Source: an uncultured Pseudomonadota bacterium (GTDB lineage Bacteria > Pseudomonadota > Alphaproteobacteria > Rs-D84). From it: a DNA stretch of 64,000 nucleotides. The notes under the pieces were generated by a model. The model had not been told where the DNA came from. It was given only the letters and a program-made list of their open reading frames with translations, and made no database searches. The position numbers and the translations under genes are program-made. The stretch spans positions 144,642 to 208,641 of the forward strand of contig CACXXP010000001.1 in NCBI GenBank assembly GCA_902771695.1, read 5' to 3'. Shown here one piece after another: positions 2,430 through 22,278 of this stretch (positions within the stretch are counted from its first letter, which is position 1; each line of letters starts with the position of its first letter).

Positions 2430-2936
2430 TTATGGTTGGCGACGACTTGATGCGATATTTGCTGCCATTTGACTTAATCGGTCGGCAACCCCATTACCAC
2501 CATTTCCTGCAAGTGTAGAATGTATTGGCAAATATATTTTCTTTTCCGGGGCAGGTAACCATACTGTTTCATTTCCGGCCTGTTCAATAATGAATCTGTC
2601 AAGATTTTGTGACAGCGGAAATGTATTGCACATAAACAAATTATCTGTACTTAATTCGCCCCCCCATATCAATGGAATACGAAAACGGATAGATAAATTG
2701 TCTGGTAATTCGCGCCCGGTTAATAAACCCATAAATTCGTCGCGTCCCAGGTTCATCAGCGCAAGTTCTTGAACACAATCAGACAGTGATTTCATAAATG
2801 TATGACACAGTGCCTTGTATTGTTGAAACCAGTCGGCCGAAACGGAAACGGTGTGCGGATGTATCGGAATAACCGGCATATCCGACATTTTCATTTCTTG
2901 AAGACGTTTTTCGGCGGTCGCCTGATTCCATTGCAT
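2430..2936 (-). CDS. Hypothetical protein with degenerate HNH-like motif
   Basis: LPDNLSIRFRIPLIWGGELSTDNLFMC aligns by eye to HNH 'VHH.IPL..GG.N...NL' but has no His. Confidence 0.45.
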   Translation of the reverse strand: MQWNQATAEKRLQEMKMSDMPVIPIHPHTVSVSADWFQQYKALCHTFMKSLSDCVQELALMNLGRDEFMGLLTGRELPDNLSIRFRIPLIWGGELSTDNLFMCNTFPLSQNLDRFIIEQAGNETVWLPAPEKKIYLPIHSTLAGNGGNGVADRLSQMAANIASSRRQP

Positions 2937-3847
2937 TATTCTTTACCTATGTAATTTGCCACGGTACTTACATATGTAGATATAGCATCAAACAATTCTT
3001 TATCAAAATTATCAGGTTTGGTGTTTTTGTTTCCATTCATAAATTGTTTAAATTGTCCAATATCATTAAATGGTGAAATCATTTCGTGGTTTGAACTGGT
3101 GGTTGGTGAAATAATGCAACCACGCAGAGTAATATCATTTGCGCTGTCGCCCAGGGTGTCTTCAAATACGGTGGACAGTGTCTGAAACGCATCTATCATA
3201 TTTTCATAGGAATCATTGGATGTCACAATCCACAATACCTGGTTATATCCCAATGCCACCACAGGATTATTTAATTTACCGATACGTTTGCATGGTTTCA
3301 TTATAAATTCTGCGGATTCAAGTGTTGCTTTTATTTCATTAGCCAATGGATTTTCGCGTGGCCCGGGTGTACTTTGTGTTGGCATATTTACTCGCTGGGT
3401 CGGGGGCGTGAATTGTTGTTGCCGTAGCGATGGCATCGTTTGTGGTCTGGGTTGATGCATCGCACTTGATTGTACCGAAGACGGCGAACGTGGACGCATC
3501 CCGCCACCAACATTTGCGTAATTATTATATGTTTGTGGCGCAGGCGCAGGTTGATCCGGTGCAGACACCGGTGCATTTGCCGATTCGGTTGGCATTGGAA
3601 TTTTACGAAAACGTGGACGTACAATTGTATACAATCCAATCAGTCCAATACATAACGCGATAATCAGTGAAACATAAAATTCTGGTTTAATGTTTGCACG
3701 ATCTGCTTGGAGTCCCGACAGGTATTCCCAATGTGCCGCGGAAAAAATATCAAACCCGTACCGCGTATTCATCCAGAACGTCGTCGCCAACGCAACCGTC
3801 ATTAACCAAAGTAGTCCCAGTAAAAATTTATCAAAATTTCTTTTCAT
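2936..3847 (-). CDS. Hypothetical membrane protein (2 TM helices, Pro/Gln-rich linker, C-terminal globular domain)
   Basis: 303-aa ORF coupled to the next gene, with N-terminal hydrophobic segments. Confidence 0.7.
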   Translation of the reverse strand: MKRNFDKFLLGLLWLMTVALATTFWMNTRYGFDIFSAAHWEYLSGLQADRANIKPEFYVSLIIALCIGLIGLYTIVRPRFRKIPMPTESANAPVSAPDQPAPAPQTYNNYANVGGGMRPRSPSSVQSSAMHQPRPQTMPSLRQQQFTPPTQRVNMPTQSTPGPRENPLANEIKATLESAEFIMKPCKRIGKLNNPVVALGYNQVLWIVTSNDSYENMIDAFQTLSTVFEDTLGDSANDITLRGCIISPTTSSNHEMISPFNDIGQFKQFMNGNKNTKPDNFDKELFDAISTYVSTVANYIGKE

Positions 3848-3890
3848 TTTGCTTAAATTATATCACATTTATGATAAAGTAGAAAGTGTT

Positions 3891-4571
3891 ATGATTAAAA
3901 CAGATGTTCTTTTTGATTCAATAGATGATATTTCTTGTGCATGGGTTCCAAATGGCACAGATGTGCCGGAACTTGCGCGGATATCTGATTTGGTCATCGC
4001 AAAAAACATGCAATATTTGTCTTTGCCGGTTGGGGCGGTTGATACAGTTTGGCCTTGGGTGGAACAAAATTCGGTGAAAATTTTAACCCGTGTGAATTTT
4101 GCAAATGATGCAACAGGTGATGTTGCGATGTCGCAACTTGCCACCAATATAATGGATGCGTTTAGACACGGGGCATCCGGGGTTCAGGTTTTTGTTCATT
4201 ATGATGATATTACGGAATTTGTGGATATGATGTTGCCAATGCGGGATGATTTGTTCTTTGAACGGTATTTGTCGGTGGCAATGAATATCAAAGAAGTTCC
4301 AAACAACAAATGGCCAGAGGTGTTCGCGTTGCTGGATAAAATTCGTCCAAATTCAATTTTAATAATTGCGGATGGCGATTCGTTTAATCCAAAATCAGAT
4401 TTCTTGGGACGGATGTATGCGATGCTGGAACAATGGAATCAGAAATTTGCTTTGCATGTTATATTCGGCAAGAATATGATGCGGGTCAGCCAAACATTGC
4501 GTTTGGTACAAAAAATGCAACCGGGAATTTTGCCTGAATTTCGCGTGTTTATTATTGCAGACCCAGAATAA
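3891..4571 (+). CDS. Hypothetical protein, possible degenerate DeoC/aldolase-like TIM barrel
   Basis: Likely start ATG 3891. VKILTRVNF and AFRHGASGVQVFV resemble DeoC segments. Confidence 0.5.
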   Translation: MIKTDVLFDSIDDISCAWVPNGTDVPELARISDLVIAKNMQYLSLPVGAVDTVWPWVEQNSVKILTRVNFANDATGDVAMSQLATNIMDAFRHGASGVQVFVHYDDITEFVDMMLPMRDDLFFERYLSVAMNIKEVPNNKWPEVFALLDKIRPNSILIIADGDSFNPKSDFLGRMYAMLEQWNQKFALHVIFGKNMMRVSQTLRLVQKMQPGILPEFRVFIIADPE

Positions 4572-6801: not shown

Positions 6802-7510
6802 ACCAAATTTTGATTTATTGCGTGATTGGGCATCGGCAGAAAAATCTCAAAATTTTGCAAGCAATTCCGCCTATGTCGCAATCTTTCGTAAAGATGATAA
6901 AACATTGGTTTATATGTGTGATAGGCATGGCGAAAATATATCCTTTAATATGGTTGATATGTGTTTCGCCGATGATTTTGGTGTTAAACCTGATGTATTG
7001 TTGACCGAGATAGAAAATACCGGATTTGAACGTAAATTTAATTGGCATGGATATCAAAGTAATACATTGGTCTATGCGGCGGAAATCGCCGCACAGCGAA
7101 ATATTCCGGTTGTGTTTTCTGACCTGTCTGATTCACAATATGTTGATGTCATAAATTGTGGTTTCCCAGATAACAAAATTACAACTATTGATTTAGATCG
7201 GGTGTTGTCCAGTGAACCAAATATGAACGGCAATCTGTCGCAACAAATGTCATCGTATCTTAATGTTATGGGGCGCGATAGATTTATGTTGCAGAATATC
7301 GCAGCGGCATTGAATCGGTATGATACGGTGTTCGCTATATTTGGTGTGGGGCATTATGAAAATCAGCGTCTTGTGTTAGAAGATATGTTGGGTAAACCAG
7401 AATATATAACACGAATAAAAAATATGCGTGGTGATTTTACAAATGTAAAAATAGAACCAATTAAACTGTGTGATTTTGAAGAGGAGGGGGTAAATGACAA
7501 AAACGCGTAA
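6791..7510 (+). CDS. Hypothetical protein, possibly TraB/GumN/TIKI-like
   Basis: C-terminal RDRFMLQNI...VFAIFGVGHY resembles the R..M...G.GH motif of that superfamily. Confidence 0.45.
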   Translation: MQFKPNFDLLRDWASAEKSQNFASNSAYVAIFRKDDKTLVYMCDRHGENISFNMVDMCFADDFGVKPDVLLTEIENTGFERKFNWHGYQSNTLVYAAEIAAQRNIPVVFSDLSDSQYVDVINCGFPDNKITTIDLDRVLSSEPNMNGNLSQQMSSYLNVMGRDRFMLQNIAAALNRYDTVFAIFGVGHYENQRLVLEDMLGKPEYITRIKNMRGDFTNVKIEPIKLCDFEEEGVNDKNA

Positions 7511-8240
7511 ACTAATCAGAACAAGATTAAAGCATGTGCGTCGTGATAAACATGCGTCTGCGTTGTTGCGGGTGTTGCGTGCAACAGGTTTGTTTCGGTG
7601 GGAACGTAAAAATACACATGGTGAAGAAGTATTAAATATTTTGACGCATGGCATAGGTATTGGATTGGCGTTGGCGGGACTTTCGTTATTGGTTGTATTT
7701 GCCGCACTGTATGGAAATGCATGGACGGTTGTGTCTTGTGCAATTTTTGGTGTGACAATGTTTACATTATATTTTGGGTCCACAATGTGTCATGCAACGA
7801 TTGGTAAAAAAAGTGAATGTTTTTTTGAGGTATGGGACAGTGTCGCCATATATGCGTTGATAGCCGGGACATACACGCCTTTTTTATTGGTAAATCTACG
7901 TGGGGCATTGGGGTGGACAGTGTTCGGTATTTTATGGGCAATTGTTATTTGGGGGGCAATTGTCAAAATTCGTAACCCACACCAGCAACCCAAATGGGTC
8001 GTTGCATTGTATTTAATTATGGGGTGGACGCTATTATTTATATTACCGGCAATGATACACCATATTCCGCCACGGGGACTGTGGTTTATTTTGGCGGGTG
8101 GTTTGTCATATACGATTGGGGTTATATTTTACCTGTGGCGGAAATTGAAATTTTCGCACGCGATATGGCATTTGTTCGTTATTGGTGGAACAGTATGTTT
8201 CTTTTTTGCGGTTCTATACGGTGCAATTCTTGATGTTTAG
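7494..8240 (+). CDS. Hemolysin III / PAQR family membrane protein (TrhA/YqfA-like)
   Basis: EEVLNILTHGIG, STMCHA, IYALIAGTYTPF, HAIWHLFV. Confidence 0.92.
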   Translation: MTKTRKLIRTRLKHVRRDKHASALLRVLRATGLFRWERKNTHGEEVLNILTHGIGIGLALAGLSLLVVFAALYGNAWTVVSCAIFGVTMFTLYFGSTMCHATIGKKSECFFEVWDSVAIYALIAGTYTPFLLVNLRGALGWTVFGILWAIVIWGAIVKIRNPHQQPKWVVALYLIMGWTLLFILPAMIHHIPPRGLWFILAGGLSYTIGVIFYLWRKLKFSHAIWHLFVIGGTVCFFFAVLYGAILDV

Positions 8241-8247
8241 CAAACAG

Positions 8248-8276
8248 TTGACATTTGCATTTCATAGTAATATAAT
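8248..8276 (+). promoter_or_regulatory. Perfect sigma70 consensus promoter upstream of the thrS leader
   Basis: TTGACA (8248-8253), 17 nt, TATAAT (8271-8276). Confidence 0.85.
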
Positions 8277-8285
8277 GCATTTGTT

Positions 8286-8348
8286 ATGAAGCATTTTATG
8301 TTTATTTTCACAACTGCTACAACTACAACCCCGTTTGGGGTGCGGTAA
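8286..8348 (+). CDS. Putative thrS leader peptide MKHFMFIFTTATTTTPFGVR
   Basis: 20-codon ORF with 6 Thr codons in 7 positions, between the promoter and thrS, followed by a weak hairpin and T7 run. Confidence 0.75.
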   Translation: MKHFMFIFTTATTTTPFGVR

Positions 8349-8429
8349 TTTCTATTTGCGTTTTTTATGGCGCGTTATATAATCAAACAGTTAAAAAAAA
8401 TTAACACAAAAACACTAGAGGTTTTTATT

Positions 8430-10163
8430 ATGTCTTATCCAATTGAATTGATTCGTCATTCGCTGGCGCATGTGATGGCGGCGGCGGTAAAGAAGTTACA
8501 CCCAGATGTTAAATTTGCGGGTGGTCCGGCAATTGAAAATGGTTTCTATTACGATTTTGATACCGAATATCGTTTTTCCGAAGAAGATTTTGAAAAAATT
8601 GAAAAGGAAATGCGCGATTTAATCAAATCTAATGGTCGTTTTGAACAACGTATTGTTGACCTGGACGAAGCAAAAAAAATCTTTGCCGATCAACCGTATA
8701 AAATGGAATGGTTAAATGAATACGATGCGGCTGGTGAAAAGCTGTCCATTTATACTTTCCGTGACTTTACTGATTTGTGCCGTGGACCGCATGTGGAATC
8801 CAGTAAAGATTTGCCACGTGATGGTTTCAAAATTCGTAATGTTGCCGGTGCGTATTGGAAAGGTGATTCCAAAAATAAAATGTTGCAACGTATTTATGTT
8901 GACGCATTTGAAAGCAAGGAAGCATTAGAAGAATTCTTGAAAATGCAGGAAGAGGCCGCTGCGCGCGATAACCGTAAACTTGGTAAAGATATGGATTTGT
9001 TCCATTTTGAACCTGAATATGCTCCTGGGGCGGTATTTTGGCATGACAAGGGATATCGCATTTATCGTCGCATGATTGATTATTTGCGTATGCGTCAAGA
9101 ACGTGCCGGTTATTTTGAAATATCAACTCCGTCAATTATGGATCGTTGTCTGTGGGAACGCAGTGGGCATTGGGCAAAATATGGTGCACACAATTATTCC
9201 GGAACGACCCAAGATGGCAAGGTGTTTTGTGTAAAGCCGATGTCTTGCCCGGGCGGAATGTTGGTATTTGGTCAAGGTATTAAATCTTATAAAGATTTGC
9301 CGATGTATTTGGCAGAATTTGGTAAGGTTTGCCGTTACGAAGCCGCCGGTGGTTTGTCTGGGTTGATGCGCGTACGTGAATTTACCCAAGACGATGCACA
9401 TATTTTCTGCACCGAAGACCAATTAGAAGATGAAGTGGTCAAGGTTTTGCGTTTCATCAAAGATATATATGCAAAATTCGGTTTTGATAAAATATCTATG
9501 AAATTGGCAACCCGACCATTGTCTGAATTCCGCATTGGTTCTGATGAAGTTTGGGACAAAGCCGAAGGCGCATTAAAACATGCATTGGACGCAAATGGTA
9601 TTGATTATGAAATTGCAGAAAATGATGCGGCGTTTTACGGTCCCAAGATTGATAATTATCTGAAAGATTCTATGGGCCGTGTATGGCAATGCGGTACAGT
9701 TCAATTGGATATGAACCTGCCAGAACGCTTTGATTTATCATATATTGGCGAAGACGGTGAACGGCATCGCCCGATTATGTTGCATCGTGCGTTGCTTGGG
9801 TCAATTGAACGCTTTATGGGTGTGTTGCTGGAATCAACTGGTGGTAATTTGCCATTGTGGTTGTCCCCAGAACCGGTTGTTGTGGTGCCTGTATCTGAAA
9901 AGTATCGCGAATATGCTGAACAGGTTGTTGCGGATCTGCGTAATGTCGGGGTTCATACCCGTGCCGATTTGCGCGATGAAAAGGTTAATTACAAGGTGCG
10001 CGATTTATCGTTGGCTAAAACTCCGATTATTGCGGTCGTCGGTGAAAAAGAATCGGCGGATAAAACGGTTACCTTGCGCAGATTGGGTGTTGAAAAGCAA
10101 GAAGTCGTTGCATTGGATGAATTTGTAAAGCAAATGTCCGATGCAATTAAAATGCCACAATAG
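8430..10163 (+). CDS. thrS: Threonine--tRNA ligase (no N-terminal TGS domain)
   Basis: RHSLAHVMA, DLCRGPH, GAYWKG, VKPMSCPG, GLMRVREFTQDDAHIF, FYGPKID, MLHRA; GAGG RBS before ATG 8430. Confidence 0.97.
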   Translation: MSYPIELIRHSLAHVMAAAVKKLHPDVKFAGGPAIENGFYYDFDTEYRFSEEDFEKIEKEMRDLIKSNGRFEQRIVDLDEAKKIFADQPYKMEWLNEYDAAGEKLSIYTFRDFTDLCRGPHVESSKDLPRDGFKIRNVAGAYWKGDSKNKMLQRIYVDAFESKEALEEFLKMQEEAAARDNRKLGKDMDLFHFEPEYAPGAVFWHDKGYRIYRRMIDYLRMRQERAGYFEISTPSIMDRCLWERSGHWAKYGAHNYSGTTQDGKVFCVKPMSCPGGMLVFGQGIKSYKDLPMYLAEFGKVCRYEAAGGLSGLMRVREFTQDDAHIFCTEDQLEDEVVKVLRFIKDIYAKFGFDKISMKLATRPLSEFRIGSDEVWDKAEGALKHALDANGIDYEIAENDAAFYGPKIDNYLKDSMGRVWQCGTVQLDMNLPERFDLSYIGEDGERHRPIMLHRALLGSIERFMGVLLESTGGNLPLWLSPEPVVVVPVSEKYREYAEQVVADLRNVGVHTRADLRDEKVNYKVRDLSLAKTPIIAVVGEKESADKTVTLRRLGVEKQEVVALDEFVKQMSDAIKMPQ

Positions 10164-10173
10164 TGATAGGTGA

Positions 10174-10197
10174 TGTCCGGCGCAATTGCGCCGGACA
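10174..10197. repeat. Perfect 24-bp palindrome (hairpin) after thrS
   Basis: TGTCCGGCGCAATTGCGCCGGACA. Confidence 0.8.
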
Positions 10198-10217
10198 CAG
10201 AAAAAAAGGAAAGGAAT

Positions 10218-10361
10218 ATGAAAAAAATTCTGGTAATTATTGCGTTGTTGACCCCAGTTGTTTTGGCGGCATGTTCGCGCAGTTGTGAAACAGAACCAAT
10301 TGTTGAAGAAAACCACAAACTTATCGTGCCACCACATTTTGGTGCGCGGCCCGCAAAATAA
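10218..10361 (+). CDS. Small lipoprotein (DUF3035-like)
   Basis: Lipobox LAAC, LIVPP motif, AGGA RBS. Confidence 0.65.
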   Translation: MKKILVIIALLTPVVLAACSRSCETEPIVEENHKLIVPPHFGARPAK

Positions 10362-10421
10362 TTTTTGTGATATCAAATTTTTATGGTATAATATATCTCA
10401 AGTTAGAAGGGAGAAGCCATA

Positions 10422-11249
10422 ATGAAAGAAGACGAAAATTTGGATTTATTGGATCTGGATGATACGGATGCATCAGCCGATGATAATTTACCGGATGCCA
10501 CGCCGTTTGTTTCACCACGCCCGCATCGCCCATGGTTGTTGCTGGGGATTGGTGTTGCGGTCATCGTGTTGGCGGTATTTATTATTATTCGGGTGGTGGG
10601 CAGTAATTCTTCGTCATCCATAGATGTTGATTTGGGTGAACCAATTGTTGTTCAAGAACGTGTTGTTGAACCAGAACCTGTACCGGTTCCTGTTCAGGTC
10701 GCGCCGATGCCGGCACCAACACCAGGAATGATGCCACCAGCACCTGTGCCGGGACAGCCCGCACCTGTGCAGGCGCAACCTGGGACGGTGGGTGCGCCAC
10801 ATCCCGCGCCGACTGTTCAACAGCCCGCACCGGTTCCACAGCAGAATTCTGTACGCGTTGTTCAAGACAGAAAAGATGTGACATTTAATCCAGATCGTGG
10901 AACAACGGCCACACCGAAACCAATTACGGCACCGGCACCCAAGACGGCAAAAACACCGACTAAACCGAAACCGGCACCAAAGCCGGCGGCCCAGAAAGTT
11001 GCAAATGGTGGTTGGTATGTTCAATTTGGTTCGTACAGTACACGTGCCGCGGCCGAAGCGTCTGAAAAGAAAATCCGCAGTGAACATCCAAGTTTGTTCA
11101 GTGGAAAACAATTTGTGATTTTGGCGGCGGTGTTGCCGAATGGACAAACCACATACAGATTGCGTGTCGCGTTCGCAACATCGGGTGATGCAAATGGGTT
11201 CTGCCGTAATGCAAAGTCCGATGGATTGGATTGCTATGTTGCAAAATAA
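10422..11249 (+). CDS. SPOR domain protein (FtsN-like architecture)
   Basis: One TM helix, Pro-rich linker, C-terminal WYVQFGSY...YRLRV...FC...LDCYV. Confidence 0.88.
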   Translation: MKEDENLDLLDLDDTDASADDNLPDATPFVSPRPHRPWLLLGIGVAVIVLAVFIIIRVVGSNSSSSIDVDLGEPIVVQERVVEPEPVPVPVQVAPMPAPTPGMMPPAPVPGQPAPVQAQPGTVGAPHPAPTVQQPAPVPQQNSVRVVQDRKDVTFNPDRGTTATPKPITAPAPKTAKTPTKPKPAPKPAAQKVANGGWYVQFGSYSTRAAAEASEKKIRSEHPSLFSGKQFVILAAVLPNGQTTYRLRVAFATSGDANGFCRNAKSDGLDCYVAK

Positions 11250-18989: not shown

Positions 18990-19600
18990 AGAGAATATTT
19001 GTTGCTATGATTTGTGTATTTATGGCGTTTGGTGCGTTCGCGGCAACGGATAAAGCGTTGGTTGCAAATGCAGAAAAATATCTGAATTCTATTACAGGTA
19101 TAACAGGTGATTTCGTTCAAACAAATAAGGGTAAAAAGGAAAAAGGAACTTTTTCTATGTTGCGCCCAGGACGCGTTCGTTTGGATTATAAAAACATGCC
19201 GGTGCAACTTATGGCGGACGGTTCGGATTTATATTTTTATGATAAGTCATTGGATCAAATTACAACCGTGCCGTTGACCAGTACGCCTGCGGGGATATTG
19301 GTACGCAAAAAGATAGATTTGCAAAATGCAGATATAAATGTTGTTGATACGGCGGTTGGCAAAACGACGTTTGCATTGAAGATGAACCTGCGTGGTCAAG
19401 AAGGTTTGGGCACCATGGTTATGGTGTTTAATAAAAAACCGGTATCATTAAATGCCTGGACAATCATAGATGCGGTTGGAAATAAAACAGATGTTTCATT
19501 TAGTAATCTAAAAACAAAAACGGATTTTGGTAAAAATTATTTTCAGGTTCAACGTCATAAAACGGTTAATACCAGTGGCGGTGATGATTTCTATGATTAA
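18986..19600 (+). CDS. lolA: Outer membrane lipoprotein carrier LolA family
   Basis: Signal peptide, DFVQ, RPGRVRLDY, ADG, PLTSTP. Confidence 0.85.
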   Translation: MKRIFVAMICVFMAFGAFAATDKALVANAEKYLNSITGITGDFVQTNKGKKEKGTFSMLRPGRVRLDYKNMPVQLMADGSDLYFYDKSLDQITTVPLTSTPAGILVRKKIDLQNADINVVDTAVGKTTFALKMNLRGQEGLGTMVMVFNKKPVSLNAWTIIDAVGNKTDVSFSNLKTKTDFGKNYFQVQRHKTVNTSGGDDFYD

Positions 19601-20588: not shown

Positions 20589-20640
20589 CTTTTTGCCCTA
20601 ACATATTTATTTTATGTGTTTTTTATGATATAATTTTTGC

Positions 20641-22278
20641 ATGAGAAAAATTTTCTGGGGAATTTTAGTGGCGGTGTTTTTTGCGGCGTGTGATTTGCAA
20701 CCAAAAATCACATCGTTACCTGATACGGTTGGCGATTTTATTTCGGCACGTTATCCTGCATTGTTGGCGGACCCAAATACAGAATCAGAAATATATAATT
20801 CAGCAGCACGTGACTATGGCGTGTATGCATCGCCTGAATTATACGGGTCAGTAGACATGGGCGATTATGTTAATTATGTTGGGGTTGATGATTATATGTT
20901 GCCGGTGGATGATGATACGGATAATGATGAAAATGAATCTGCAGATGAATCGGGTTCCCAAGATATACAACAAGAAGAGGATGATAGACCGGAAGAAACG
21001 GAAACAGATGCAAATGATGCATCAGAAGAAGTAGAAGAGATTGACGTCATAGATATTCCTGAATACAAAACAGATGAAATAAATGTCCCGGCGCGTGCGG
21101 CAACTGGCACGGTTGTCGTGCGGCGTGGTGATACGTTGTATGCAATTGCACGTGAAAATGGGATGACTTTGGATGAAATTGCGCGTGCGAATAATTTGTC
21201 TGAACCGTACACGATTCGGATAGGGCAGGTTCTAAAAATAAAAACCGAAACACCGATAAAAACAGAGGTCAAGCCAGCCCCCAAGGCAGAAAAAGAAGTT
21301 GCAAAAGGAACCCCAAAGCCAACACCAAAGCCGGTTAAAGAAGTCACCAAGTCTGAACCAAAACCCACAAAAGAAGTCGCAACAAAAAAGACAGAACCCA
21401 AGGTTATAAAGTCAGAACAGCCGGTCAAATCGGAACCCAAGGCCCCAAAAGATATTCGTGTGCCAATCAAAGATATTACGGTTGCGCGTGGTGATACTTT
21501 GTATTCTATTTCGCGTAAATATTCTGTGCCTGTAAATGATTTGGCGGTTATGAACGGATTGTCGGCGCCGTTTTCATTAAGTGTGGGACAAACATTGCAT
21601 GTGCCCGATTTACAGGTGCGCATGGCGGACACGCCCAAGAAACCCACAACCACAACGGTCAAGGTATCGGATAAAAAGGTTGAAACAAAAAAAACAAACA
21701 TAAAAGAACAACCGGTCAAGAAAGCAGATAATAAAGTTGTCAAACAAGAACCGGCGAAAAAAGCAGAGACAAAAAAGGCAGAAAACAAAAAACAAGAGAC
21801 AAAAAAGACGGTTAAAACCGAACCCAAGAAAACAACTGAACCCAAACCCACAACCAAAACGCCGAAAAAAACAGAAGCACCAAAGATAGTGGCACGTTCT
21901 TCGTCAAAGTTTTCGTGGCCGGTGCGTGGCAGTATCTTGTCGCATTATGGGGCAAAAACGGGCGGATTGTACAACGATGGTATAAATATATCCGCGGCGT
22001 TGAATACATCGGTTCTGGCCGCAGAAAATGGTGTTGTCGCGTATGCCGGGAACGAGGTTCGTGGTATGGGTAACCTGGTTATTATTCAACATGCAGATGG
22101 GTGGATGACGGTTTATGCACATATGAATTCTATGACGGTGCGCCGCGGTGCACGTGTGTCGGTTGGTCAAAAAATAGGTACAGTTGGAAAAACGGGCAAG
22201 GTCACAACCCCACAATTACATTTTGAAATTCGTAAGGGTACCAAGGCATACAATCCGGTAAATTATTTAAAAAAGTAA
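20641..22278 (+). CDS. LysM x2 / M23 peptidase lipoprotein (NlpD/DipM-like)
   Basis: Lipobox FAAC, two LysM domains (VRRGDTLY, VARGDTLY), M23 FSWPVRG, YNDGINI, TVYAH, PQLHFEIR. Confidence 0.9.
   Translation: MRKIFWGILVAVFFAACDLQPKITSLPDTVGDFISARYPALLADPNTESEIYNSAARDYGVYASPELYGSVDMGDYVNYVGVDDYMLPVDDDTDNDENESADESGSQDIQQEEDDRPEETETDANDASEEVEEIDVIDIPEYKTDEINVPARAATGTVVVRRGDTLYAIARENGMTLDEIARANNLSEPYTIRIGQVLKIKTETPIKTEVKPAPKAEKEVAKGTPKPTPKPVKEVTKSEPKPTKEVATKKTEPKVIKSEQPVKSEPKAPKDIRVPIKDITVARGDTLYSISRKYSVPVNDLAVMNGLSAPFSLSVGQTLHVPDLQVRMADTPKKPTTTTVKVSDKKVETKKTNIKEQPVKKADNKVVKQEPAKKAETKKAENKKQETKKTVKTEPKKTTEPKPTTKTPKKTEAPKIVARSSSKFSWPVRGSILSHYGAKTGGLYNDGINISAALNTSVLAAENGVVAYAGNEVRGMGNLVIIQHADGWMTVYAHMNSMTVRRGARVSVGQKIGTVGKTGKVTTPQLHFEIRKGTKAYNPVNYLKK

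Follow-up and report, generated by a model that had tools for sequence, protein, structure and literature searches.

A short open reading frame (ORF) rich in threonine (Thr) codons lies directly upstream of thrS, the gene for threonyl-tRNA synthetase, in an uncultured alphaproteobacterium of the order Rs-D84, and this raises the question of whether the ORF senses the very tRNA that the synthetase charges. We studied this locus in a stretch of 64,000 nucleotides (nt) of contig CACXXP010000001.1 (GenBank assembly GCA_902771695.1), hereafter called the window, and in the upstream regions of thrS and other synthetase genes of this and related genomes. Our results indicate that the ORF is very likely part of a regulatory leader built on codons cognate to its synthetase. 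The best overall explanation is that this leader is a compact cis-acting sensor of charged tRNA-Thr for thrS, to which we give a probability of roughly one half.

The DNA upstream of thrS was sampled from 24 genomes of the same genus, with one locus (L006) cut by a contig end, and from 31 further Enterousia-like records, with L063 dropped for a match that starts at residue 121. ORF and hairpin were found in 23 of 23 usable loci of the genus, the window's own locus (L001) included, and in 31 of 31 Enterousia-like loci; removal of three identical sequences left 51 distinct leaders. All 51 distinct Enterousia upstream regions share one module, which consists of a promoter (P1), the ORF, a hairpin (hairpin A), a U-rich tract, and a second, candidate promoter (P2) (Table 1). 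The mean column identity of alignment A1 (50 relatives) is only 50%, and the parts that are invariant or nearly so are the P1 hexamers, the ATG, the Thr codons, ACAACCCC...GGGGT, TAATTTCTATTTG, and TTG-16/17-(T)ATAAT. Six of the 20 codons of the window copy encode Thr, and four to eight do so in 51 of 51 relatives. Counted backwards from the Pro codon, Thr stands at codons -1 to -6 in 51, 51, 48, 42, 40, and 40 of the 51 leaders, respectively, with third positions that interchange (ACA/ACT/ACG/ACC). The peptides end in a Thr run, Pro-x-Gly, and stop, and their N-terminal residues are diverged and only loosely hydrophobic. Since Thr is kept with synonymous changes while the N-terminal residues diverge, selection acts on codon identity and neither on the peptide nor on a fixed string of letters.

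P1 is the sole match at 12 of 12 positions within 7400-10600 (3.2 kb), a region in which promoter-like sites as a class are not enriched (10 versus 9.0 ± 2.7 in shuffles), and its -35 TTGA and the A/T positions of its -10 hexamer are invariant or nearly so in alignment A1. The leader ATG has no Shine-Dalgarno sequence and no space for one, and the P1 transcript is predicted to be leaderless or nearly so, with a 5' untranslated region (UTR) of 0-3 nt. Among the 51 relatives, the distance from the end of the -10 hexamer to the ATG is 5-10 nt (mode 7), and the ORF has 16-26 codons (mode 18). The U-rich Phe codons that precede the Thr run might be suggestive of RNA polymerase pausing. A preliminary description of this DNA, made from the window sequence, had proposed a TTGACA-17-TATAAT promoter, a nearly leaderless ORF at 8286-8348, an ACCCC-GTTT-GGGGT hairpin at the end of the ORF, and thrS downstream. 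All of these sequence elements were borne out: P1 has the 12-of-12 match, the ATG opens 20 codons 9 nt after the -10 hexamer, the hairpin is present in the fold, and the gene matches TIGR00418. The conserved Thr-run ORF that it suggested seeking in relatives was likewise recovered, being kept with synonymous changes in 51 of 51 distinct Enterousia leaders.

Hairpin A is built from the end of the ORF itself. Its upper stem spans codons Thr15 to Val19, its 3' arm reaches the stop codon, and its lower stem appears in the single-sequence fold. The CCCC/GGGG letters are invariant in 53 of 53 aligned sequences with loops that vary, and the flanking pairs are kept in 39-49 of 52-53 sequences. The mean energy is -10.2 kcal/mol (54 sequences), and the usual form, UACA-(A)-CCCC / GGGG-UGUA, has eight pairs, one bulge, and an energy of about -11 kcal/mol; the stop codon contributes its U and A to the stem, and AUUUCUAUUU comes right behind it. 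The leader stops within the 3' arm or 1-3 nt after it in Enterousia, and in the loop (..ACC CCN TAA GGGG) in loci L027, L028, L190, and L191. Because the GGGG arm persists in these loci where the ORF ends in the loop, hairpin A must be under selection as RNA. Together with its U-rich tail, in which TAATTTCTATTTG is nearly invariant, it satisfies a simple terminator rule, which asks for no fewer than 5 pairs and, behind them, 5 T or more in 8, in 31 of the 51 Enterousia leaders. The case rests on conservation and not on folding energy, because the whole leader (8283-8440) folds no better than its shuffles (z -0.26); on the window sequence alone, the finding of a leader would be weak.

Table 1. 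Features of the thrS upstream region, in window coordinates
Feature	Position	Strand	Description
Promoter P1	8248..8276	+	TTGACA 8248-8253, 17-nt spacer, TATAAT 8271-8276; 12-of-12 match
Leader ORF	8286..8348	+	ATG start, 20 amino acids (aa), MKHFMFIFTTATTTTPFGVR, stop TAA 8346-8348
Sensor codons	8310..8330	+	Thr9, Thr10, (Ala11), Thr12-Thr15 = ACA ACT GCT ACA ACT ACA ACC
Hairpin A	8313..8346	+	Upper stem ACCCC/GGGGT 8328-8341, loop GTTT; lower stem 8313-8317 with 8342-8346
U-rich tract	8347..8357	+	AATTTCTATTT, directly 3' of hairpin A; candidate termination or pause site
Candidate promoter P2	8356..8383	+	TTGCGT 8356-8361, 16-nt spacer, TATAAT 8378-8383; expected start near 8390
Hairpin B (predicted)	8358..8373	+	GCGTT-TTTTAT-GGCGC; sits in the P2 spacer
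Shine-Dalgarno of thrS	8417..8421	+	AGAGG; AAGG-type motif kept 6-9 nt 5' of the ATG in relatives
thrS	8430..10163	+	577 aa; TIGR00418, E 5e-201; without N-terminal TGS domain

The strongest argument for charged-tRNA sensing comes from other synthetase genes. We annotated 125 of the 132 genes of this genome that have at least 300 aa and at least 90 nt upstream, the seven left out being thrS, one gene truncated at the end of its contig, and five genes of great length. Leaders with cognate codons were found before hisS (24 of 28), ileS (28 of 29), tyrS (4 of 4), and serS (12 of 30). Because cognate codons thus stand before five synthetase genes, the thrS leader is very probably a sensor of charged tRNA.

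The hisS and serS leaders resemble that of thrS. The hisS leader of this genome (G000:C15, locus L155, about 2880-2950, minus strand) has a leaderless-looking ORF, MITDWNIFYVVHHAHAGVCF, ending in ..HHAxxG..stop, with His codons that fall in the 5' arm and the loop of the hairpin ACGCCC-AUGC-GGGCGU; 3' of this hairpin come a U-rich stretch and a conserved TGATATAAT promoter. Of 28 relatives, 24 have an upstream ORF that contains HH or HxH. The serS sister cassette has an ORF of the form Ser run-Pro-x-Gly-x-stop with the same CCCC-N4-GGGG hairpin, and the 12 of 30 genus loci (the locus of this genome counted among the 30) that carry it are L214, L216, L217, L219-L223, L226, L206, L207, and L211; a closing pair changes from A-U to U-A in, for example, L214, L216, and L217. 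The serS gene of this genome directly follows its upstream gene and has no leader.

The ileS and tyrS leaders are organized differently, with antiterminator/terminator pairs that were read by eye. The ileS leader encodes MKTKEIIIIR (L229, about 1405-1500; G000:C13:5458-5553), and an antiterminator (CUGCGC/GCGCAG) and a terminator (GGGCGCA-GA-UGCGCCC followed by six U) lie 3' of it. A leader of the form M-x3-4-IIII-K/R-stop was found in 28 of 29 relatives, the 29th having a GTG start, and in some relatives this leader comes directly after a tRNA gene. The tyrS leader (L185, about 1320-1480; G000:C11) ends in GFYYAY-stop and is followed by a 12-base-pair (bp) antiterminator and an 8-bp terminator with seven U, with compensatory changes in the three relatives that hold the same tyrS type. 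This type occurs in 4 of 31 genomes of the genus (this genome included, E 1e-60), and all four have the leader. We read the ileS and tyrS wiring as classical: on reaching the stop codon, a ribosome would occlude the antiterminator's 5' arm, and ample aminoacyl-tRNA would lead to termination.

Other upstream regions of this genome gave further candidates. Upstream of the class I lysS gene (G000:C9, about 19254-19400, minus strand), the ORF MRQNGKKSLS with two Lys codons is followed by a possible antiterminator and then by a strong terminator with eight U. Upstream of trpS (G000:C10, about 20600-20730, L259), an ORF ending in ..APFYGRWRR has a single Trp codon, which falls in the 3' arm of a hairpin of 7 bp; behind it comes CGGUAAUUUUUAU, a tail resembling that after the thrS hairpin. 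This trpS type is held by 5 of 31 genomes, this genome included, and the candidate was set aside as unconserved, with no such ORF in three full-length relatives of the same type. A Ser-run ORF before a 390-aa gene on contig C21 was rejected as a serS leader, the gene being dusB, and a 322-aa gene that follows a Phe-run ORF on C5 had no NCBIfam match at E 1e-70 and hence is not shown to be pheS. Upstream of metG (G000:C1, about 3700-3900), a tRNA gene lies between a promoter-like site and metG, and a terminator-like hairpin stands just before the metG start.

P2 and its surroundings bear on how the leader is connected to thrS. P2 matches only 3 of 6 positions of the -35 hexamer and is therefore not listed by the promoter scan. 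In alignments A1 and A2, its TTG and the A/T positions of its -10 hexamer are invariant, and its spacing is constant at 16-17 nt, so that it looks like a real sigma-70 promoter. Relatives that lack the leader module (L030 and L189) have a promoter and an A-rich UTR at the corresponding position, and a conserved (TG-N-)TATAAT is also found 3' of the hisS and serS cassettes. Because L030 and L189 have a promoter there without the leader and the hisS and serS cassettes precede a TATAAT, the P1-ORF-hairpin module appears to be an add-on before an ordinary thrS promoter. A unit with its own strong promoter, a hydrophobic Phe-rich N-terminus, a terminator-like end, and another promoter behind it could also be a gene in its own right, for a small protein or a small RNA, that just happens to neighbour thrS. 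This is very improbable, considering that the peptide is unconserved except for the codon run and the letters that build the hairpin, and that the run becomes His, Ser, Ile, or Tyr before the matching synthetase genes. Furthermore, the module is constant beside thrS in relatives whose upstream neighbours differ, and a search with a covariance model of the leader (R1) found no further copy in this genome (next best E 0.27).

The preliminary description had also placed a terminator behind the ORF, in a weak stem (TGCGGTAAT-TTCT-ATTTGCG) followed by seven T, so that the hairpin at 8328-8341 and this stem at 8341-8360 would form a classical thrL-type attenuator. The letters are present in the window and, when the 5' arm of hairpin A is masked, its G-run tends toward G-U pairs with the U-tract. 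This stem, however, is absent from the minimum-energy and centroid folds and from the terminator scan, and the GCGG of its 5' half is missing in most relatives. The T-run consists of six T (8361-8366) and is the variable loop of hairpin B, not a terminator tail. Hairpin B itself has a mean energy of -5.8 kcal/mol (z about -2). All four of its pairs change on both sides, the structure beats all slid versions, and its 23 cells with two-sided changes compare with 8.9 ± 2.4 in shuffles (0 of 500 as high), in an alignment that was fitted to the structure and thus favours it. Consensus folding of the transcribed part with RNAalifold gave only two independent hairpins and no conserved long-range pairing, and folding with and without a ribosome footprint likewise showed none of the mutually exclusive structures that an attenuator of this type implies. 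An antiterminator was sought by consensus folding and by masking, and none was found; masking of the 5' arm of hairpin A leaves hairpin B largely intact (4.84 versus 4.04 pairs), and a three-segment switch between hairpins A and B is unsupported by either approach. A classical thrL-type attenuator is therefore hardly to be expected here. What stands of the earlier proposal is control of thrS by a Thr leader, for which the conserved Thr run and the cognate leaders of other genes speak, whereas alternative hairpins of the thrL type do not appear; of its anatomy, the unconserved stem drops out and the hairpin inside the ORF remains as the sole terminator-like element.

How could a leader with a single hairpin inside its ORF act as a sensor? 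In the simplest scenario, RNA from P1 would start at the AUG or no more than 3 nt from it, and 70S ribosomes would translate the 18-20-codon ORF, the final two or three Thr codons of which form the 5' arm of a GC hairpin with a U-rich tract behind. When tRNA-Thr is poorly charged, the ribosome would stall on the Thr codons and cover the 5' arm of hairpin A, so that the masked hairpin could not form and P1 transcripts would cross P2 into thrS, adding to a basal level of thrS supplied by P2. With no ribosome on the Thr codons, hairpin A would form, and P1 transcripts would end or pause near 8350-8358. Conservation is best in the Thr codons closest to the hairpin (51 of 51, 51 of 51, and 48 of 51), and leaders with only two or three Thr codons (L027, L190, and L191) keep exactly those beside the stem. 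This conservation of stem-adjacent Thr codons, together with the His codons in the 5' arm and loop of the hisS hairpin, fits masking by a stalled ribosome. Negative feedback on thrS would be physiologically sensible. In the part of a published account that bears on this lineage (PMC12306168), Enterousia, of the order Rs-D84, is described as having genomes of ~1 Mb or less without amino acid, nucleotide, and lipid pathways. Since the lineage reportedly lacks amino acid biosynthesis, synthetase genes would be natural targets for sensing. Thus, we tentatively propose masking by a stalled ribosome with induction under starvation as the mode of action, at odds just short of even.

Several observations weigh against this proposal. 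The ribosome that does not stall would also melt hairpin A, because the stop codon sits in the stem, and termination with ample Thr-tRNA would need an RNA polymerase that usually outruns the first ribosome. The ATG and the hairpin are 39 or 42 nt apart in 43 of 54 leaders, a constancy that a kinetic race between ribosome and polymerase would predict and simple masking would not. The window's own hairpin A and tail are not reported by the terminator scan, and 20 of 51 relatives and three of three outgroup leaders tested fail the simple terminator rule; the U-tract is interrupted and partly overlaps the -35 region of P2. Moreover, the four GC pairs of hairpin A never vary, so that covariation is uninformative there, the leader counts come from kin and overstate independent support, and P2 could supply all thrS transcription.

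The constant spacing leads to an alternative with the opposite sign. In a kinetic race of the pyrBI type, a ribosome close behind the polymerase would suppress the embedded terminator, and slow decoding of Thr codons would let it lag, so that the hairpin forms, transcription terminates, and low Thr-tRNA lowers P1-driven expression of thrS. The ORF covers the entire hairpin with its stop codon in the stem, its start is predicted to be leaderless, and its near-constant distance of ATG to hairpin (39 or 42 nt in 43 of 54) is as a race would have it. In leaders with six Thr codons, the first of these lies ~13-15 nt before the stem, roughly the reach of a ribosome, and the Thr run would be decoded while the polymerase transcribes the 3' arm and the U-tract. 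However, such a race means positive feedback on a synthetase, which would be unstable. The cognate codons at five genes speak for control of each enzyme through its own product, and the feedback read from the ileS and tyrS leaders of this genus is negative. It also fits poorly with the leaders of two or three Thr codons (L027, L190, and L191) and with the in-stem codons of hisS, where no lag would arise without masking of the hairpin. The kinetic race is unlikely on this evidence, albeit a serious rival.

Alternatively, the stalled ribosome may act after transcription or through a factor, shielding P1-thrS RNA near its 5' end from RNases that depend on that end (RNase J or RNase E) or hiding an entry site for Rho or an RNase; hairpin A would then be no terminator, and a quickly vacated leader would leave the RNA exposed. 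The genome encodes Rho, RNase E/G, and a member of the RNase J family, the Thr and Ser codon runs are C-rich and G-poor, and AAUUU, which lies between the two hairpins, is similar to the single-stranded, AU-rich sites preferred by RNase E. This alternative gives negative feedback and does not depend on how polymerase and ribosome are timed relative to each other. On the other hand, the invariant hairpin and the constant spacing have no part in it, ACN repeats contain few of the pyrimidine-C pairs that would suit Rho, the stretch behind the leader is rich in A and not in C, and no data point specifically to Rho or RNases. We consider it rather unlikely, though likewise a serious rival, and the race described above a little less unlikely.

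The predicted leaderless start also invites comparison with translational attenuation of the erm or mycobacterial polycysteine type, in which the Thr tract or a hairpin arm would pair with the ribosome-binding site (RBS) of thrS and stalling would free it. A leaderless short ORF with a cognate tract is what the mycobacterial account describes in the part relevant here (bioRxiv 10.1101/834739), and in a few relatives, such as L010, ACAACC can by eye pair with GGUUGU near the Shine-Dalgarno sequence. Against this, the unpaired probability of the thrS Shine-Dalgarno sequence and AUG is on average unchanged by masking of the leader (0.47 versus 0.48, 43 sequences), RNAalifold predicts no conserved long-range pairing, and transcripts from P2 would carry no leader. 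Translational attenuation is therefore improbable, and stalled-ribosome masking of hairpin A is the reading that we retain.

RNA libraries, which exist as assembled contigs only, gave limited information on transcripts of the leader. At least a quarter of the words sampled from the stretch are present in seven of them. Contig X2 extends from 8197 to 8351 and ends 3 nt after the leader stop codon, which is a weak hint. Contig X3, at a depth of 2.4, joins the reverse complement of 8312-8478 to 8286-8335, with a junction that coincides exactly with the leader ATG, and reaches across the leader and the start of thrS, again a weak hint; its fold-back may be a cDNA artefact formed at an RNA 5' end. 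X2 leaves 8352-8424 uncovered, and X1 and X6 cover nothing before 8520; these holes carry no conclusion. The contigs would agree with RNA that begins at 8286 and ends in the U-tract, with some read-through, but as single contigs of low depth they prove nothing.

Outside the genus the module is found in part of the order. Among other Rs-D84 genomes, it is present in 7 of 15, which belong to three other families (G028, G030, G032, G033, G034, G036, and G037), and was not found in the remaining eight (G025, G026, G027, G031, G035, G038, G039, and G040); G029, in which thrS starts at a contig end, was excluded from this count. Of 107 genomes sampled from the genus, 106 have the motif ACNACCCC-N3-5-GGGG, which in other families occurs in 3 of 4 (f2), 4 of 19 (f3), 0 of 1 (f4), 2 of 2 (f5), and 3 of 3 (f6), matches that were not position-checked singly and of which several in f3 look like chance. 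Model R1 was too specific for this survey and was not used in it, since at E 0.01 it missed L028, L190, L191, L196, and L197. In 48 more distant loci (L064-L112), Pelagibacter included, no Thr-run ORF with a hairpin was found in the 260 nt before the start, and TxTxT matches in L084 and L100 stand in other contexts. The ThrS proteins of these loci have an N-terminal extension of 67-81 aa, which we take to be the TGS domain. ThrS lacks this domain in Enterousia and some other Rs-D84 genera, and an N-terminal extension of at least 67 aa is found in other Rs-D84 genera and in more distant Alphaproteobacteria. A link between the leader and a ThrS without TGS domain was nevertheless rejected: G033 and G036 have both TGS domain and leader, and G026 and G031 have neither.

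The window belongs to a Candidatus Enterousia genome, assembled to 0.97 Mb in 23 contigs, and the nearest named records are Candidatus Enterousia and 'uncultured Alphaproteobacteria' genomes from animal guts. The assembly holds a single thrS, and the Pfam domains of its product are tRNA_SAD, tRNA-synt_2b, and HGTP_anticodon only. The conserved start is the ATG at 8430 rather than the in-frame ATG at 8367 in the ORF list, and an A-rich stretch lies between the second TATAAT and the AGAGG. The genome has tRNA-Thr genes with the anticodons GGT, TGT, and CGT. A gene for a VirB4-family type IV secretion ATPase lies outside the window in this 1-Mb genome (G000:C1:19336-21756).

To our knowledge, textbook control of synthetase genes comprises only a few systems, namely T-boxes, thrS autorepression, and pheST attenuation. 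The reduced-genome gut lineage studied here appears to control at least five synthetase genes by leaders with cognate codons, and three of these leaders (thrS, hisS, and serS) have a minimal, apparently leaderless single-hairpin design that is not readable from the classical model. We put forward, at slightly less than even odds, that Rs-D84 uses a distinct cassette without antiterminator, in which a leaderless ORF of ~18 codons, whose cognate run is the 5' arm of a small terminator, is placed before the gene's own promoter; that this cassette has been re-used with Thr, Ser, and His codons; and that, together with the Ile and Tyr leaders, it forms a ribosome-read synthetase regulon that would be the main amino acid sensing device of these bacteria. 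A module of ~110 nt could inform on how tightly ribosome and polymerase need to be coupled in attenuation and could show whether a terminator inside the sensor ORF can give negative feedback. It also suggests an annotation rule, namely to inspect the DNA before the synthetase genes of such genomes for short ORFs that annotation has missed.

Among synthetase genes, pheST of E. coli is an established case of leader-peptide attenuation; its leader peptide gene, pheM, has a normal ribosome-binding site. The thr operon leader thrL (RF00506) controls biosynthesis genes through alternative hairpins, and the pyrBI and pyrE attenuators of E. coli sense UTP via polymerase pausing, with tight coupling leading to read-through. 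A full-text literature search found no paper on a Thr-codon leader before thrS; outside this search lies the survey by Vitreschak et al. 2004, which is said to treat proteobacterial attenuators. Leader-peptide attenuators have also been predicted for trpS2 and leuS in Streptomyces (PMC1262725) and for hisS paralogs in bacilli (PMC2965389), as far as the relevant parts of these papers go. In mycobacteria, the part of a preprint concerned with leaderless polycysteine short ORFs presents them as amino acid-responsive translational attenuators, several loci of which form a regulon (bioRxiv 10.1101/834739).

The thrS leader shares with the attenuators of pheST, trpS2, leuS, and hisS a short ORF of cognate codons before a synthetase gene and the ribosome as sensor of charged tRNA. 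Those systems, in the passages on them that we rely on, are described as a classical antiterminator and terminator, whereas the thrS leader has one hairpin inside the ORF and no antiterminator; from the pheM type it further differs in its apparently leaderless start and in the candidate second promoter behind it. With thrL it has in common the Thr-codon run in a leader peptide, but RF00506 does not match at E up to 10, and biosynthesis targets are reportedly lacking here. As in pyrBI and pyrE, the leader ORF runs through a hairpin, here a terminator-like one, and a ribosome on it would block termination; unlike in these attenuators, the variable would be the decoding of cognate codons on the 5' arm of the hairpin. 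The apparently leaderless short ORF with a tract of one codon type recalls the polycysteine ORFs, although in the portion of the preprint describing them their tract pairs with a downstream Shine-Dalgarno sequence, a pairing that is not predicted in the thrS leader, and the targets here are synthetases. The E. coli thrS operator, at which threonyl-tRNA synthetase represses its own synthesis, and the T-boxes of Firmicutes likewise control the same gene through its 5' region. Unlike these, the thrS leader has no stem-loop resembling an anticodon arm and, in an Rfam scan at E up to 10 that included Thr_leader RF00506 and T-boxes, no match on the + strand over the leader, the only leader match being Phe_leader on the opposite strand (20.9 bits versus a gathering score of 55); its conserved feature is the codon run. 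Set beside these systems, the thrS leader is a compact variant of leader-peptide attenuation.

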